Source: Candidatus Moraniibacteriota bacterium (lineage in GTDB: Bacteria > Patescibacteriota > Minisyncoccia > Moranbacterales > UBA9337). From it: DNA of 33,538 nt. Under the pieces are notes generated by a model, which was not told the origin of the DNA, made no database searches, and was given only the letters and a program-made list of their open reading frames with translations. Where the stretch lies: NCBI GenBank assembly GCA_034007405.1, contig JAVEQZ010000001.1, positions 1-33,538 of the forward strand. Reading direction: 5' to 3'. Below are positions 321-20,237 of this stretch, one piece after another. Position 1 is the first letter of the stretch. Every line of letters starts with the position of its first letter. A program made the translations under genes and the position numbers.

Positions 321-436
321 ATTTTTATAAATCAGCTTTTTAGGTGATTAGTCTTTAGCTTTTTAGGTAATTTCCTACAAGCTACCAGCTAAATTCTACA
401 AGCTAAACAAATTAATTCTTAAAATTATACTTCCTG

Positions 437-509
437 AGCCGTTGCGCAGAATCGAACTGCGGACCTTTTCCTTACCATGGAAATGCTCTACCATCTGAGC
501 TACAACGGC
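437..509 (-). tRNA. tRNA-Thr (anticodon GGU)
   Basis: Reverse complement: GCCGTTG TA GCTC AGATGGTA GAGC A TTTCC AT-GGT-AA GGAAA AGGTC CGCAG TTCGATT CTGCG CAACGGC T. This is a full cloverleaf with a canonical T-loop. No CCA is encoded. Confidence 0.85.
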
Positions 510-586: not shown

Positions 587-660
587 TGTGGGCTGGGACG
601 AATGCCTGCCGGTAGGCAGGGATTTGAACCGCCGTAGACCGAAGCCCTTTACGTCTACAG
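587..660 (-). pseudogene. tRNA-Tyr-derived 3' fragment interrupted by a 20-nt GC-rich hairpin insertion
   Basis: Positions 587-600 and 621-644 match the 3' acceptor, T-arm and variable-arm part of the adjacent tRNA-Tyr (679-716) with one mismatch. They are split by aatgcctgccggtaggcagg (601-620). No D-arm, anticodon arm or 5' acceptor is present. Confidence 0.6.
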
Positions 661-680
661 TTTTTTCCTAATCATTTTTG

Positions 681-763
681 TGGGCCGGGACGGATTTGAA
701 CCGCCGTAGACCGAAGTCGTCAGATTTACAGTCTGATGCAATTGACCGCTCTGCCACCGACCC
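681..763 (-). tRNA. tRNA-Tyr (anticodon GUA), long variable arm
   Basis: Reverse complement: GGGTCGG TG GCAGAGCGGTCAATTGC A TCAGA CT-GTA-AA TCTGA, variable arm CGACTTCGGTCTAC, GGCGG TTCAAAT CCGTC CCGGCCC A. The 7-bp acceptor pairs fully. Confidence 0.85.
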
Positions 764-912
764 AACAATACTAATTTCGAATTTCAAAATTCGAAATCCG
801 AAACAAATCATAAATTCAAATCTTCAAAATTCAAAACATTTTGAATTTGATATTCTGGTAATTCGATATTGTTTAGAATTTCGTGCTTCGAATTTCAAAT
901 TTAAAGTACTTG

Positions 913-985: not shown

Positions 986-1017
986 TTATTTATCTTTTGA
1001 TAAAAATTCTTCTTTTA

Positions 1018-1139
1018 GGGCTCGCCCTATCATCCGATAGGGCGCCATGTCGGATGACATGGCGGACCGACGACCTACTGTTTACAAAACAGTGCTCCCT
1101 GCCTGCCGGTAGGCAGGTACCAACTGAGCTAAGGTGGCT
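1018..1139 (-). pseudogene. Degenerate tandem copy of tRNA-Thr(UGU) carrying three GC-rich hairpin insertions and lacking the 3' acceptor strand
   Basis: It is collinear with 913-991 apart from four differences. (1) A 20-nt insert at 1098-1117 in the D-loop. (2) A 40-nt insert at 1023-1062 (two hairpins) in the T-loop. (3) A 1-nt deletion. (4) No counterpart to the GACAGGTGGCT 3' end. Confidence 0.6.
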
Positions 1140-1234: not shown

Positions 1235-1263
1235 ATTCTATGCTAAAATAGAAAAATTGTAAA
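1235..1263 (-). promoter_or_regulatory. Candidate sigma70-type promoter for the tRNA operon
   Basis: The minus strand reads TTTACA-17 nt-TAGAAT, about 90 nt upstream of the first tRNA-like element. Confidence 0.4.
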
Positions 1264-8235: not shown

Positions 8236-8574
8236 TTACATTTTTTCAATCTCTCCCACTACATCGTCAATACTTTTCTTCTCCGGAGCAACAGAGGCTT
8301 GATTTCTCATAGCTCTTTCCGATCCTTCCGGTTCATTGATTTTTAGATTCACGCGAGCGTTATTTTTTGCTCCGATAACTCTTAGCAAAGTTCTTAGCGC
8401 TTTAGCTGTTTGTCCTTCGCGGCCGATGACTATTCCCATATCTTTTGGATCAACATCCAAAGTGATAAGAACACCCATTTCATCCACCTTTCTTTCTACT
8501 TTTACTGCACTTGGATTGTCAACAAGCATTTTGACCACCTGCTCGATAAATCCTGCGTCGATTGTTTCTGACAT
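8236..8574 (-). CDS. KH-domain RNA-binding protein (YlqC/KhpA family) with a C-terminal extension
   Basis: 112 aa. LVDNPSAVKVERKVDEMGVLITLDVDPKDMGIVIGREGQTAKALRTLL carries the GxxG KH core. Confidence 0.8.
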   Translation of the reverse strand: MSETIDAGFIEQVVKMLVDNPSAVKVERKVDEMGVLITLDVDPKDMGIVIGREGQTAKALRTLLRVIGAKNNARVNLKINEPEGSERAMRNQASVAPEKKSIDDVVGEIEKM

Positions 8575-8641
8575 ACTTTTTTCTTTTCTTACTAATTATC
8601 GAAACGACACTCTTTATATTTTTTAAATCGTTTCATTAAAG

Positions 8642-8670
8642 ATTATAAATTATTTACCAATTTCTGTCAA
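8642..8670 (-). promoter_or_regulatory. Consensus sigma70 promoter for the KH-domain gene (TTGACA-17-TATAAT)
   Basis: The minus strand reads ttgacagaaattggtaaataatttataat, with both hexamers perfect. It lies about 60-70 nt upstream of the ATG at 8574. Confidence 0.6.
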
Positions 8671-8753
8671 ACAAATCCGCCCCACCCAATCATTCTCCTC
8701 TAAATCTGCACCTCTCCGATAATTTGAATAAAAAAACCTTTCCATGAAATCGC

Positions 8754-9209
8754 TTAATCTCCGATACAATTCTTATCTCCGATATATCCTCGACCTTTTG
8801 CCTCCTCTTCGCTTTTGAAACAGATTAAGTTTTCCGGTTTAATGTTTTTTGCCCAACGACAATCCGGTTTGTGATATTTATTGGAATTTTTACTCCCCAT
8901 AAAAGCGCATTCTGTCTTTTGCGCCATTTGATTATCGGCAAGTTCGCTCTTTGGAGAGTTCTCCGCCCCCAAAACGGCTTGATCTAAATTTTCCGGCGCA
9001 ACCGTTTCTTTTTCCGGAGCGGTTTGGACCACCAAAGGGGCGACCTTTATTTTATGCCCCTCCAAAACCCCCACCTCAAAAGAAATTATCGCAATCAAAA
9101 AAATTCCCAAACTTAGGACGATTTTACTCTCATTTTTCTTCCAAAAATCAACAATTTGTCCGATTCGCCCCCCTGGGCCTTTAACCGAACTCTTATTTTT
9201 TATTGACAT
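8754..9209 (-). CDS. Membrane-anchored protein with a C-terminal Ada-like Cys/His metal-binding-type domain
   Basis: 151 aa. It has one TM helix (IVLSLGIFLIAIISFEVGVL). The C-terminus KYHKPDCRWAKNI...FKSEEEAKGRGYIGDKNC resembles the Ada N-terminal Zn-binding fold. Confidence 0.65.
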   Translation of the reverse strand: MSIKNKSSVKGPGGRIGQIVDFWKKNESKIVLSLGIFLIAIISFEVGVLEGHKIKVAPLVVQTAPEKETVAPENLDQAVLGAENSPKSELADNQMAQKTECAFMGSKNSNKYHKPDCRWAKNIKPENLICFKSEEEAKGRGYIGDKNCIGD

Positions 9210-9230
9210 TTCTTTGAAATTTGTTATACT
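9203..9230 (+). promoter_or_regulatory. rpmA promoter (TTGACA-16-TGtTATACT)
   Basis: The plus strand reads ttgacatttctttgaaatttgttatact. The -35 overlaps the start codon of the divergent gene 8754..9209. Confidence 0.55.
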
Positions 9231-9264
9231 TATTTCTGTTAGTTTAATATGCTAAATAAATTTT

Positions 9265-9549
9265 ATGGCACATCGTAAAGCCGGCGGGTCAACTCAGTAT
9301 GGTCGAGATTCCATCTCCAAAAGACTGGGAGTTAAAATTTTCGGAAGCGAAAAGGCAAAAACCGGAAATATAATCGTCCGCCAAAAAGGAACAAAATTTC
9401 ACCCCGGAAAAAATGTCGGTCGCGGAGAAAATGACACTTTATACGCTTTGACTGACGGAATTGTCCAATTCAGCAAAAAGAAAGTTATCGCTTTTACCGG
9501 CAAGATAGCTAAGCGCAGATTCGTCAGCATCACTCCGGAGAAAAAATAG
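9265..9549 (+). CDS. rpmA: 50S ribosomal protein L27
   Basis: 94 aa. [16 protein letters not shown]...[19 protein letters not shown] is canonical L27. Confidence 0.92.
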
Positions 9550-9570
9550 TTTCCGAACATATCTCACAAA

Positions 9571-9595
9571 CAGACAACACCGGTTGTCTGTTTTT
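9571..9595 (+). terminator. Intrinsic terminator after rpmA
   Basis: Hairpin cagacaac-accg-gttgtctg followed by ttttt. The T-run overlaps the pyrG stop codon. Confidence 0.6.
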
Positions 9596-11225
9596 ATTTT
9601 TTTATCGCATTGATGAAAGCGAAAAAAAGCGGATGCGAGCTTAACGGGGTTGATTTGAATTCCGGATGAAACTGAACGGCCAAGAAGAAAGGATGCTTCT
9701 CTACAGGCAATTCAACTATCTCCATCAAGCGGGAATCTTGGGACTTACCGGAAAAAATCATTCCACTCTCCTCAATCATCTTGATATAATCCGGATTAAC
9801 TTCCCAACGATGGCGATGGCGCTCGGAAATTTCTTTTTTACCATAAGCCTTATAAGCGATAGTGCCTTTGGTCAAAAATGCAGGATAAGCCCCTAAACGC
9901 ATAGTAGCTCCGTAATTTTTGTCCTCCAGATTCTTCTTTTGCTCCGGCATAATATCAATCACCGGATTTTTGGTATTTCGATCAATCTCGGTGGTATGCG
10001 CATCTTTTAAGCCCAAAACATTTCTAGCATATTCAATTACCGCCAACTGCATTCCGTAACAAAGACCCAAAAAAGGAATCTTGTTTTCCCGGCAATATTT
10101 TATAACATTTATCTTTCCTTCAATCCCTCGAGAGCCGAATCCGCCCGGCACCACTATTCCGTCAAATCCCTTCAATTCCTCCATATTTTTGCCTTTCTTC
10201 TCAAAATCCTCGCTGTTGAGCCATTCAATTTGCGGTTTGACTCTGGCTTTGAAACAAGCGTGCTTGATCGATTCAATCACGCTAATATAGGAATCTCCCA
10301 GCAAAAATTCACCGGTCCCAAAATATTTCCCGACAATTCCGATTTTAACTGATTTTTCCGATTTTTTGATATTTTCCACCAAATTATACCAACTCTTCAA
10401 ATCGGTCTTTCTCGTCGGCAGATTCATTTTTTTTAAGATTCTCCTACTCAAATCATCTCGCTCGAAATTTATCAAAACCTCGTAAACATTCTCCACATCC
10501 GGAGCGGAAATAATATCTTTTTCATTAACATTGCAAAAAAGAGCGATTTTTTGTTTTCTTTTATCGTCAATCGCCACTTCACTCCGAGCAATAATAATAT
10601 CCGGATTGATTCCGTTGGCATTTAGTTCTCTGACTGCCTGTTGAGTCGGCTTGGTCTTCATCTCGCCCACCTTGGGAGGATAAGGCAAATAAGTAATCAT
10701 CACAAAAATCACATCCTTCGGATTTTTCAATTTCATCTGTCGAGCCGCCTCCATAAAAAGCATATTTTCATAATCTCCGATAGTTCCCCCGATTTCAGTC
10801 AAAACGACATCCGCCTCATTATCTCTGGCCGCATTTTTAATTGTTCGAATCACTTCATCGGTAACATGCGGGATAATTTGAACACATTTGCCTTTATAGC
10901 CGAGATTTCTTTCGCGATTGATTACTCGCTGATAAACGCTTCCGGTAGTCATATAGTTTTGTCCGGGCAAAGTAATTTCCATAAAACGCTCGTAATTTCC
11001 CATGTCCTGATCAGTCTCCAAACCGCAATCCATCACAAACACTTCCCCGTGCTCGGTCGGGTTCATTGTGCCGGCATCAACATTGACATAAGGGTCGATT
11101 TTAACCGCTGTCGGCTTGTAGCCCCGCGCTTTCAAAATCGCTCCCAAAGAAGAAGTTGCCACTCCTTTACCGATTCCGCTCATTACTCCACCCAATACAA
11201 AAATATACTTTTTATTTTGCTTCAT
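9594..11225 (-). CDS. pyrG: CTP synthase
   Basis: 543 aa. YIFVLGGVMSGIGKG is the N-terminal synthetase motif. The C-terminal glutamine amidotransferase domain has GLCYGMQ and FHPEF. Confidence 0.95.
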   Translation of the reverse strand: MKQNKKYIFVLGGVMSGIGKGVATSSLGAILKARGYKPTAVKIDPYVNVDAGTMNPTEHGEVFVMDCGLETDQDMGNYERFMEITLPGQNYMTTGSVYQRVINRERNLGYKGKCVQIIPHVTDEVIRTIKNAARDNEADVVLTEIGGTIGDYENMLFMEAARQMKLKNPKDVIFVMITYLPYPPKVGEMKTKPTQQAVRELNANGINPDIIIARSEVAIDDKRKQKIALFCNVNEKDIISAPDVENVYEVLINFERDDLSRRILKKMNLPTRKTDLKSWYNLVENIKKSEKSVKIGIVGKYFGTGEFLLGDSYISVIESIKHACFKARVKPQIEWLNSEDFEKKGKNMEELKGFDGIVVPGGFGSRGIEGKINVIKYCRENKIPFLGLCYGMQLAVIEYARNVLGLKDAHTTEIDRNTKNPVIDIMPEQKKNLEDKNYGATMRLGAYPAFLTKGTIAYKAYGKKEISERHRHRWEVNPDYIKMIEESGMIFSGKSQDSRLMEIVELPVEKHPFFLAVQFHPEFKSTPLSSHPLFFAFINAIKK

Positions 11226-12409: not shown

Positions 12410-12495
12410 TTTCTTCTCCTTTTTCCATTATTTTGCCTCACTTAGAAATTAAGTTTGGCGATAAAAGTTTCTCTCAATATTTTTCGTCAAAGAAC

Positions 12496-12521
12496 AAAAA
12501 AACCGGTCTCGGAGAGACCGG
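12496..12521 (-). terminator. Leader terminator/attenuator hairpin upstream of orphan gene 12038..12409
   Basis: ccggtctc-gga-gagaccgg (12503-12521) is followed on the minus strand by seven U (12496-12502). It sits inside a 5' leader, not after a gene. Confidence 0.55.
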
Positions 12522-12653
12522 CTTATTTTTATCAAGAAATTTTTTAATTTATTCTTTTCTCGGCAAAAACAAAACGGTCTCTCGTCATAAACCAGAAATA
12601 AAAGTAAAAATATAAAGTTTTTGCTGTTTTTTGAATCATATTTTTCTGAAATA

Positions 12654-12682
12654 ATATTATTCTTTTTTTTATTTTTTGTCAA
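12654..12682 (-). promoter_or_regulatory. Near-consensus sigma70 promoter (TTGACA-17-TAATAT) driving the leader of 12038..12409
   Basis: The minus strand reads ttgacaaaaaataaaaaaaagaataatat. The predicted TSS is near 12647, about 240 nt upstream of the ATG at 12409. Confidence 0.55.
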
Positions 12683-12729
12683 ATTTTAAAAGAGTAATAT
12701 CAAGAGGAACTTAAAAGTTGCAAAAAATG

Positions 12730-12738
12730 TGTTATACT
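12730..12738 (+). promoter_or_regulatory. Extended -10 element (TGtTATACT) upstream of dprA
   Basis: tgttatact lies 30 nt upstream of the dprA ATG. The -35 region (ttaaaa) is weak. Confidence 0.35.
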
Positions 12739-12768
12739 GAAAATACTTTTTCGCTAAAAATAAAATAA

Positions 12769-20057: not shown

Positions 20058-20143
20058 GCCCGGATGGCGAAATTGGTAGACGCGCACGACTCAAAATCGT
20101 GTGGATCTGATCCATGAGAGTTCGAGTCTCTCTCCGGGCACCA
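20058..20143 (+). tRNA. tRNA-Leu (anticodon CAA), CCA encoded
   Basis: GCCCGGA TG GCGAAATTGGTAGACGC G CACGA CT-CAA-AA TCGTG, a long variable arm, GAGAG TTCGAGT CTCTC TCCGGGC A CCA. Confidence 0.88.
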
Positions 20144-20237
20144 AAACATTAAACAAAAATAACTACTGAAATAGGGTTTATTCATGTGAATTTTTACCAC
20201 ATTGAATAATCGTGGCAAGTCTCTCTCCGAGCACATC

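Follow-up and report, generated by a model that had tools for sequence, protein, structure and literature searches.

The DNA considered here (the window, 33.5 kb in full) is a segment of a bacterial chromosome of ~38% G+C that encodes ribosomal protein S2, EF-Ts, enolase, CTP synthase, DprA, topoisomerase I, RelA/SpoT, ParAB, RecA, FtsK and PSP1/RicT. Homologues of the last of these assign the segment to Candidatus Moranbacteria, a lineage of the Patescibacteria (candidate phyla radiation, CPR). Its minus strand carries a tRNA gene cluster headed by a truncated copy of tRNA-Thr(UGU), the stub, with three GC-rich hairpins inserted in its loops. The stub is probably the displaced, non-functional 5' half of the tRNA gene, a relic of a nuclease cassette that invades tRNA genes. 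In minus-strand order the region consists of a tetratricopeptide repeat (TPR) gene, a promoter-like site, the stub, tRNA-Thr(UGU), tRNA-Tyr(GUA), a 3' fragment of tRNA-Tyr, tRNA-Thr(GGU) and rpmG, with the following features (L numbers denote other loci used for comparison):

1235-1263, minus strand: promoter-like site TTTACA-17-TAGAAT upstream of the stub, a consensus match only; the same sequence in L001, L002 and L260
1018-1138, minus strand: truncated tRNA-Thr(UGU) copy (the stub), read against the intact gene; positions 1-57 plus AGCCC
1098-1117: D-loop 20-nucleotide (nt) quasi-palindrome (the 20-mer), CCTGCCTACCGGCAGGCAGG in minus-strand reading, between GGTA and GAGC
1023-1064: double hairpin (DH) in the T-loop, at TCCG^AG; two 20-nt palindromic modules
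986-1017, minus strand: AT-rich spacer of 32 nt from stub to intact gene; part of the 134-nt repeat unit of L219 and L260
912-985, minus strand: intact tRNA-Thr(UGU) (ARAGORN; Rfam, 68 bits)
764-911, minus strand: Thr-Tyr spacer, with AT-rich palindromes built on GAAATTCGAA / TTTGAAATTCGAAAT
680-763, minus strand: intact tRNA-Tyr(GUA) (ARAGORN, Rfam)
587-660, minus strand: 3' partial copy of tRNA-Tyr(GUA), anticodon loop to 3' end, 20 nt downstream of intact Tyr
601-620, unstranded: degenerate 20-mer copy (18/20 bases), a 20-nt insertion at the AATC^C T-loop end of the Tyr fragment
436-509, minus strand: intact tRNA-Thr(GGU) (ARAGORN, Rfam), the last gene of the cluster before rpmG

Read on the minus strand, the stub runs GCCACCTTAGCTCAGTTGGTA(CCTGCCTACCGGCAGGCAGG)GAGCA-CTGTTTTGTAAACAGTAGGTCGTCGGTCCG(CCATGTCATCCGACATGG CG CCCTATCGGATGATAGGG CG)AGCCC, with insertions in parentheses, and then passes into unrelated AT-rich spacer; the intact gene reads ...GGTAGAGCAACTG...GGTCCGAGCCCGACAGGTGGCT. 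The match between the two extends from 12 nt of 5' flank through position 57 and is followed in the stub by AGCCC, with neither the 3' strand of the T-stem nor the 3' strand of the acceptor stem. An earlier, sequence-only reading of the region had proposed a second tRNA-Thr(UGU) copy upstream of the intact one, carrying three precise insertions in the D-loop and T-loop and having lost its 3' acceptor strand, so that it could not be a chargeable tRNA. Direct reading confirms these points, with the insertions at 1098-1117 and 1023-1064, and places G1 of the copy at 1138 instead of 1139. Each of the three insertions is exactly 20 nt long, and one A is deleted after GAGCA. The T-loop hairpins span 1023-1064 when the shared CG dinucleotides are counted, a net addition of 40 nt (2 x 20), and their boundaries are uncertain by 2 nt because CG is repeated at every junction. 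On the plus strand the DH reads CG-CCCTATC ATCC GATAGGG-CG-CCATGTC GGAT GACATGG-CG, with stems of 7-9 bp. The loops ATCC and GGAT are complementary to each other, as had been pointed out, and reverse-complementing hairpin A gives hairpin B, apart from two compensatory pair changes.

These are the strongest GC-rich perfect hairpins of the window. None of the three sequences is found elsewhere in its 33.5 kb, and 100 shuffles yielded no match to any of them. The predicted fold of the stub has an energy of -57.3 kcal/mol (z = -4.5). The stub sequence recurs in L219 and L260, which were assembled from other samples, and it is therefore not an assembly artefact. ARAGORN and Rfam 15 recognise the intact genes only, with no match to the stub even at Rfam E <= 1, and ARAGORN finds no complete cloverleaf in it before or after removal of the inserts. 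A hammerhead-like three-way junction, formed by the T-stem and the two hairpins, was considered and rejected, the conserved CUGANGA/GAAA core being absent, and the short resemblance of the spacer at 986-1017 to KRRI codons is too weak to make it the remnant of an internally deleted open reading frame (ORF). Both the stub and the intact gene have C at position 55 (T-loop TCCG), a peculiarity already remarked upon. C55 (TCCGAGC) in place of the near-universal U55 is a lineage trait, seen also in L002, L005, L219 and L260, whose neighbouring genes are 76-99% related, and the intact tRNA-Thr(UGU) copy of L219 has the T-loop TCCGAGT.

The T-loop insert belongs to a widespread family. Metagenome contigs were scanned with a pattern covering both hairpins, giving at least 120 loci that are ascertained on the hairpins themselves. 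The consensus is CG-CC N5 ATYC N5' GG-CG-CC N5 GRAT N5' GG-CG, 40 nt net, to which window positions 1023-1064 are an exact fit. In almost every listed locus the matched hairpin is one half of a 40-nt DH, and among the matches listed the insert measures 40 nt at 90 of 104 sites. The pattern allows 16 combinations, 4 of them self-complementary, and 142 of the 144 hairpins matched have one of these 4. Partner hairpins, which the search left unconstrained, pair in 97.6% of cells and show 57 double-sided changes against 17 expected, a number reached in none of 500 shuffles; G-U pairs make up ~1.4% of cells in DH stems. The insertion is flanked as TTCG^AA (T precedes CG in 92% of half-sites), and this motif is the palindromic core of the tRNA T-loop. 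The DH interrupts T-loops at positions 55-58 or, for a minority of units, anticodon loops containing TCGAA, as in Arg-UCG (CTTCGAA) and Ser-CGA (CTCGAAA). In the case of L140, one DH is nested in the TCGAAT loop of another. The paired design and the fixed flanks thus make the DH a DNA palindrome of two-fold symmetry that has a defined target in loops. The window copy, at TCCG^AG in the Thr(UGU) stub, lies on the same strand as the intact tRNA-Thr(UGU) and 32 nt upstream of it. No DH was found in the viral contigs scanned.

The DH is nearly always located in a broken tRNA copy beside an intact tRNA of the same identity, and the two lie on the same strand at 87 of the 89 sites that have an intact tRNA in the fetched DNA. 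Two geometries can be distinguished. In geometry A, a 5' fragment plus DH lies upstream of the intact gene (19 sites, 16 with an ORF between), and the window stub is one of the three ORF-less sites of this kind. In geometry B, the intact gene is followed by GGGTTCG-DH and a 3' part (32 sites, 4 with an ORF between). A GIY-YIG gene is thus flanked by broken copy and DH at 20 of the 51 classified fragment sites ascertained on the DH. Some units are arrayed in tandem: L202 has 4.2 units of 80 nt, the distal-most of which carries a diverged DH and a different, probably original, 3' end, and L219 has at least 2 units of 134 nt that are identical in design to the window unit. When 38-44 nt around every DH were deleted in silico, L242 and one or two other loci were the only ones at which ARAGORN recovered a convincing full-length tRNA; a further candidate, L159, proved spurious. 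L242 (6675-6830) is a complete stand-alone tRNA-Ala(GGC) with a DH in its T-loop, G3:U70 kept and a terminator of its own, and no duplicate or GIY-YIG gene is in its vicinity. Either the gene was inactivated recently, or its tRNA tolerates the insert or has it removed.

The ORF associated with the DH is consistent in size and type. The 270-300-nt interval of geometry A encodes a protein of ~85 amino acids in 18 of 18 loci, with the pattern MFYVYIL..YTG.T..L..R..EH...E.YLKTTEGKRFLKQQ, and Pfam assigns it to GIY-YIG (PF01541) at E of about 1e-14 (1.6e-14 at the window locus of L260/L219). The closest solved structures are the UPF0213 proteins PDB 1ZG2 and 1YWL (E about 2e-8). No NCBIfam model matches the nuclease, and no close relative was found in phage records or PHROGs, the phage records holding distant ones only (<45% identity). 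At E <= 1e-3 the domain-only GIY-YIG/UPF0213 family has 7,135 cluster representatives. The ORF starts 10-25 nt past the DH in most geometry A loci; its stop codon could be located in 11 of the 18 loci and is 0-7 nt short of the intact tRNA in 8 of these. In the mirror layout of geometry B (tRNA-ORF-DH-3' fragment), the ATG directly follows the tRNA 3' end. The stop codon lies inside DH hairpin 1 in L146 (~690-745) and L197 (~2925-2960), where the protein ends ...RPIIR* at the TAG of GATAGGG. In L269 (~900-915), a protein-ascertained locus, the ORF overlaps the intact tRNA and stops within its first 5' bases.

Sampling from the protein side, starting with nuclease homologues of which the named ones are all from the candidate phyla radiation (CPR), guards against the bias of ascertaining on hairpins. 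All seven protein-picked contexts (L263, L265, L267, L269-L272) consist of stub plus DH, ORF and intact tRNA of the same identity, Gln-CUG or Ser-CGA. The stub of L263 has extra hairpins in the D-loop and anticodon loop, much like the decoration in the window, and older stubs with nested hairpins precede the unit in L265, L269 and L270. Two GIY-YIG ORFs stand in tandem in L271 (235-864) and L123 (7108-7640), with a tRNA stub after each, a layout that suggests arrays of whole cassettes.

For the D-loop 20-mer, genomes were scanned with its first 18 bases as query, and at least 120 hairpin-ascertained loci were obtained against roughly 17 expected by chance in random sequence. Nearly all the listed 18-base matches extend by GG to the full, identical 20-mer. 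The hosts include Bacteroidota, several CPR phyla, Chloroflexota, Nitrospirota, Omnitrophota, Ignavibacteria, deltaproteobacteria and isolates such as Olivibacter, and the sequence is also present in 12 viral contigs. Its flanks show no target consensus, and many contexts are unrelated to tRNA. Other copies lie in the D-loops of pseudo-tRNA stubs, for instance at GGTA^GAGC in L112 and GGATA^GAGC in L158, and at the AATC^C T-loop end in L072 and L232. The recurrence of the D-loop insert in the Tyr fragment, which had been noticed from the letters of the window, holds as 18/20 of the 20-mer at 601-620. A position at the tip of a perfect flanking stem of at least 6 bp is enriched, at 11% of sites against 1.8% of control positions, yet it concerns a minority, and a general location at the tip of a larger hairpin is rejected. 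In L014, L030, L038, L045, L047 and L082 the 20-mer sits inside the central loop of another copy (CCTGCCTAC, 20-mer, CGGCAGGCAGG), and L047 has three copies within 2.5 kb.

A GIY-YIG gene is found in 5 of the 120 listed 20-mer loci, and each of the five has the 20-mer 27-84 nt upstream of the ORF start. The loop it occupies is the D-loop or the anticodon loop of a truncated tRNA, and in four of the five ARAGORN calls an intact tRNA past the ORF. The layout of decorated stub, GIY-YIG gene and intact tRNA therefore also exists outside the CPR, with a different palindrome. No DH-type hairpin was found in 0.8 Mb of 20-mer-ascertained loci, and the two hairpin families therefore do not simply travel together. 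The first of two earlier suggestions for the window element, that small mobile GC-rich palindromes aim at tRNA loops, is supported in substance, both families recurring in hundreds of unrelated loci. The check that would have left a mere decaying duplicate, hairpins occurring nowhere else, clearly failed to refute it, given how widespread the two families are.

Close relatives show that the locus is polymorphic. L260 is 99.0% identical to the window over 2768 bp with the same synteny, and has the identical stub, complete with D-loop 20-mer and DH, one or more additional stub units that lack the 20-mer, and intact tRNA-Thr(UGU), as well as the GIY-YIG ORF, tRNA-Tyr and a Tyr fragment with a perfect 20-mer. 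L219 is similar, with the ORF and multiple units. The difference between the window and L260 is thus a presence/absence polymorphism of the nuclease ORF and one or more stub units, and the Thr-Tyr spacer of the window is unrelated to that of L260, where the nuclease gene sits. As the window is without the ORF that both L260 and L219 carry, its element can be no more than a relic lacking the ORF. The Tyr fragment of the window has three substitutions relative to L260, two of which break its hairpin, and it is therefore decaying. Further afield, L001 (PSP1 85% identical) has a different hairpin in the stub D-loop, short Thr fragments, both 5' and 3', with different hairpins are found in L005-L007, and L002-L004 have no stub.

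On this evidence the truncated copy is rather likely to be more than a decaying duplicate, namely the displaced half of a tRNA gene that was invaded by a cassette. The anatomy of the stub, the membership of its hairpins in wider families, their association with the nuclease gene and the polymorphism among strains are observed. A full cassette consists of the gene for a standalone, Slx1/UPF0213-like GIY-YIG protein of ~85 amino acids, the 40-nt DH, and a replacement tRNA segment that restores an intact gene. The host copy of the tRNA is broken at TTCG^AA (here TCCG^AG), with the DH exactly at that point, and the window strain keeps one ORF-less unit where its sister strains have at least two together with the nuclease gene. 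The mechanism that we infer, which involves the specificity of the nuclease, the route of repair and the movement of the hairpins, would be as follows. The nuclease, by analogy, may break tRNA-coding DNA at the T-loop motif, and recombinational repair on a cassette-bearing allele or sister copy would then install the ORF, the DH and the duplicated tRNA segment. Repeated repair could expand and contract a tandem array of stubs, and in the dead copy the presumed target would be split by the DH. RecA and DprA, both encoded in the window, would serve recombination and DNA uptake. The hairpins themselves (DH modules and the CCTGCC...CAGG 20-mer) may be mobile passengers at the DNA level that land in the loops of existing hairpins, for which the loops of dispensable tRNA stubs would offer safe landing sites. 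Propagation at the DNA level, rather than selection as RNA, is favoured by the near-pure Watson-Crick stems, the symmetry, the nesting, and the solo copies that far outnumber the ORF-linked ones.

The nearest precedent for these steps comes from a phage. SegB, a GIY-YIG endonuclease of phage T6, cleaves inside tRNA genes, and a motif found enriched at the sites it cuts (23 of 83), RAWTSGAAC (complement GTTCSAWTY), fits the T-loop consensus (PMC13096335). Cleavage by SegB leads to recombination-dependent tandem amplification of tRNA-containing segments (PMC13096335). The break site that bears the DH, TTCG^AA, matches the T-loop-like motif enriched at SegB cleavage sites, and the place of that motif is where the DH and the duplication break point sit in the cassette. 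As with the free-standing GIY-YIG genes of the SegB/T4-T6 type, the nuclease gene resides within a tRNA gene cluster and varies in presence between close genomes. In contrast to SegB, the hosts of the cassette are cellular chromosomes (CPR and others) instead of phages; the protein, of ~85 amino acids and nearest to UPF0213/Slx1-like proteins, has no DNA-binding domain; the gene abuts or overlaps the end of a tRNA; and the unit includes a conserved DH together with partial, not whole, tRNA duplicates. Set against a Seg-like cassette, the window has no GIY-YIG ORF, and a C-terminal DNA-binding domain is absent from the cassette proteins.

The best sequence match of the cassette protein is to UPF0213 (1ZG2, 1YWL), which has the same domain-only build; the window itself differs in being without the gene. 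Eukaryotic Slx1 is structure-specific, and a specificity of this kind would fit a hairpin or loop as the target of the cassette. The prokaryotic standalone Slx1-like/UPF0213 group of Dunin-Horkawicz et al. has a minimal, domain-only architecture (PMC1564403). In the literature searched, no function, tRNA-gene linkage or hairpin partner is reported for UPF0213-type proteins, and the open-access papers searched contain no description of the hairpin sequences, of hairpins in CPR tRNA fragments or of this cassette, which is apparently an undescribed and widespread kind of selfish element.

Several points weigh against a cassette origin of the stub. No nuclease gene is present in the 33.5-kb window by tblastn, and the link for this copy runs through the sister strains and the family-wide association. 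The ORF of L260 and L219 is placed downstream of intact Thr and not between stub and gene, where the usual layout has it, and the stub array and the ORF of these strains could stem from separate events. An ORF is missing from the neighbourhood of about two thirds of DH sites and some 96% of the 20-mer sites sampled, many of these contigs being short. The intact tRNA copy retains the presumed target yet survives. The cassette proteins, at 83-95 amino acids, comprise the catalytic domain only, so that sequence-specific cleavage is a proposal, and we know of no mechanism by which a 20-nt palindrome is inserted without target duplication.

The main live alternative, to which we assign a low probability, is that the stub is an ordinary decaying partial duplicate of a tRNA gene that was later colonised by selfish palindromes, the GIY-YIG genes merely sharing the tRNA-flanking habitat. 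The absence of the nuclease gene from the window, the many ORF-less copies of both hairpins, and the position of the ORF in L260 away from the stubs would all be expected in that case, as would the many non-tRNA contexts and phyla of the 20-mer and the occurrence in the window of a Leu 3' fragment without any GC-rich hairpin. A shared habitat does not readily account for the seven of seven protein-ascertained genes that lie between a DH stub and the matching intact tRNA with nucleotide-precise junctions. Nor does it explain why the duplication break point coincides with the DH site in both the 5' and the 3' geometry, or why the 20-mer is at most 85 nt upstream of the ORF in all five sampled 20-mer loci that hold a GIY-YIG gene.

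Selection for a tRNA-derived leader RNA, which might act as a 5' stabiliser, a processing platform, or a regulator of the tRNA operon or the nuclease mRNA, is unlikely. The promoter-like site upstream of the stub is conserved in relatives, and the stub is therefore probably co-transcribed; from its position in the sequence it is probably the first transcribed part, or leader, of the tRNA operon. The second of the two earlier suggestions, a co-transcribed structured RNA, thus stands as regards probable co-transcription and falls as regards a selected RNA, in view of the strain variation, the decay of the Tyr fragment and the few G-U pairs. The location between promoter-like site and tRNAs, the very stable predicted fold, the covariation in the stems and the occurrence of decorated stubs upstream of the ORF across phyla speak for a leader RNA. 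Against these stand a copy number of 1 versus at least 2, and presence versus absence, among strains that are 76-99% related, as well as the two hairpin-breaking changes among the three substitutions in the sister Tyr fragment. Moreover, ~1.4% of G-U cells would be unusual under selection at the RNA level, the DH is two-fold symmetric at the DNA level, and it lies upstream or downstream of the ORF according to geometry. Equilibrium folding predicts that the stub mispairs with the 3' strand of the intact tRNA both with the hairpins (0.96) and without them (0.98); the comparison shows no effect of the hairpins and says little about a role as insulators.

The classic mark left by integrases that target tRNA genes is a partial tRNA copy beginning in the T-loop or anticodon loop, and the fragments could represent attachment (att) site duplications left when a phage or an integrative and conjugative element (ICE) integrated into a tRNA gene and was since deleted. 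The break points resemble that signature, the partial copy lies beside an intact gene as in att duplications, and a large serine recombinase abuts tRNA-Trp in L002. This origin is nonetheless very improbable, as no integrase is found beside any examined DH locus and the consistent partner is a GIY-YIG nuclease instead of a recombinase. The window has neither an integrase nor an island, spacers measure just 3-40 nt in dozens of independent loci, and, unlike att duplications, these copies include common 5' as well as 3' halves, occur as tandem units of tens of bases and have a hairpin at the junction.

The insertions fall precisely in the D-loop and T-loop with the anticodon arm intact, and L242 retains a complete tRNA-Ala(GGC) with G3:U70 around a DH, yet a functional tRNA with removable archaeal-type introns, or half of a split tRNA, is scarcely credible here: the missing 3' acceptor strand already refutes it at this locus, in silico removal of the inserts yields no tRNA and leaves a stub that still ends in AGCCC and is without the 3' strands of T-stem and acceptor stem, the junctions adjoin simple hairpins in the predicted fold, with no bulge-helix-bulge (BHB) motif, there is no 3' exon, an intact tRNA-Thr(UGU) lies 32 nt away, the window holds no complementary 3' half, and the organism is bacterial.

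Other short palindromic elements offer comparisons for the hairpins. The mitochondrial hairpin elements, namely the double-hairpin elements of Allomyces, the GC clusters of yeast and the repetitive hairpin elements of sponges, are short and GC-rich, occur in AT-rich genomes, insert in intergenic DNA and the loops of structural RNAs, and are polymorphic in presence. They resemble the present elements in being single or double GC-rich hairpins in the loops of RNA genes; we know of no mechanism for their movement and of no TTCG^AA target. They differ in belonging to eukaryotic organelles, in having no sequence relationship, and in the absence of a GIY-YIG cassette and of partial tRNA duplication. 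The repetitive extragenic palindromes (REPs), their doublet hairpins (REPINs) and bacterial interspersed mosaic elements (BIMEs) are likewise palindromes of 20-40 nt, often inverted doublets, non-autonomous, and far more numerous than the enzyme gene. REPs, however, are species-specific, have hundreds of scattered intergenic copies and a 5' GTAG, and depend on a REP-associated tyrosine transposase (RAYT) of the HUH (IS200/IS605-like) type. In the window there are four copies in 33.5 kb, all within tRNA fragments, with one family identical across phyla and a GIY-YIG partner. A REP/RAYT origin is rejected, given that the window hairpins have no terminal GTAG and the 20 window ORFs scanned include no HUH transposase. 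As for miniature inverted-repeat transposable elements, the modules are themselves palindromes; the CG that flanks each DH module could be a 2-nt duplication, and the D-loop 20-mer has none.

Beyond the cassette origin of the stub, a more general proposal may be put forward tentatively, as a possibility that we regard with some doubt. Standalone Slx1-like GIY-YIG nucleases and 20-nt GC-rich palindromes might together constitute an unrecognised class of structure-targeting mobile element across bacterial phyla. Here, the nuclease would nick or break hairpin loops, with tRNA T-loops (TTCG^AA) as prime targets, modules would be copied into such loops, those of earlier modules among them, and the cassette would rescue the essential tRNA by means of its replacement half, the window element being a fossil of this process. 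A rarer corollary would be that full-length tRNAs bearing a DH, such as that of L242, are still functional.

If correct, the cassette origin would provide the very large family of domain-only GIY-YIG/UPF0213 proteins with a function and a habitat in the genome. It would explain the partial tRNA copies and GC-rich hairpins that litter the tRNA loci of CPR and other uncultivated bacteria, which break assemblies and confuse tRNA annotation, and it would extend the T-loop targeting and tRNA-segment amplification of phage GIY-YIG enzymes to cellular chromosomes. The analysis also brings to light 20-nt palindromes that are identical across phyla and found in hairpin loops. For the window itself the practical message is modest: the stub is a non-functional relic, not to be annotated as a tRNA or non-coding RNA gene.

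Some further observations concern the rest of the cluster and its relatives. The Thr-Tyr spacer (764-911) includes a 14-bp stem at 804-774. In L219, at ~255-275 in minus reading, a short hairpin CTGCC-TGAC-GGCAG, like the core of the 20-mer, lies downstream of tRNA-Tyr in a strain without the Tyr 3' fragment. A conserved Thr(GGU)-like 3' fragment is located between tRNA-Thr(GGU) and rpmG in L002 (7895-7965) and L005 (8510-8585) but has no counterpart in the window; an AT-rich hairpin (AACCAAAAC..GTTTGTGGTT) stands ahead of it, and its deviations from the intact gene are common to both strains. Downstream of rpmG in L002, a large serine recombinase (8260-9861; Resolvase and Zn_ribbon_recom) abuts the 3' end of tRNA-Trp and is followed by primase-like genes. 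The region, which neither L003 nor the window contains, probably represents an integrated element.

Elsewhere in the window, tRNA-Leu(CAA) at 20058-20143 (plus strand) is followed ~75 nt downstream by GTCTCTCTCCGAGCAC at 20219-20234, a 15/16 match to the T-stem 3' and acceptor 3' strands of that tRNA. The break directly follows TTCGA, which makes Leu the third tRNA of the window to have a partial duplicate broken at the T-loop; the fragment has no GC-rich hairpin, and an AT-rich inverted repeat occupies the spacer instead. The sole other strong GC-rich hairpin of the window, CCGGTCTC-GGA-GAGACCGG at 12503-12521, has an 8-bp perfect stem, lies upstream of dprA in the intergenic gap 12410-12768, and has no sequence relationship with the hairpins at the tRNA genes.

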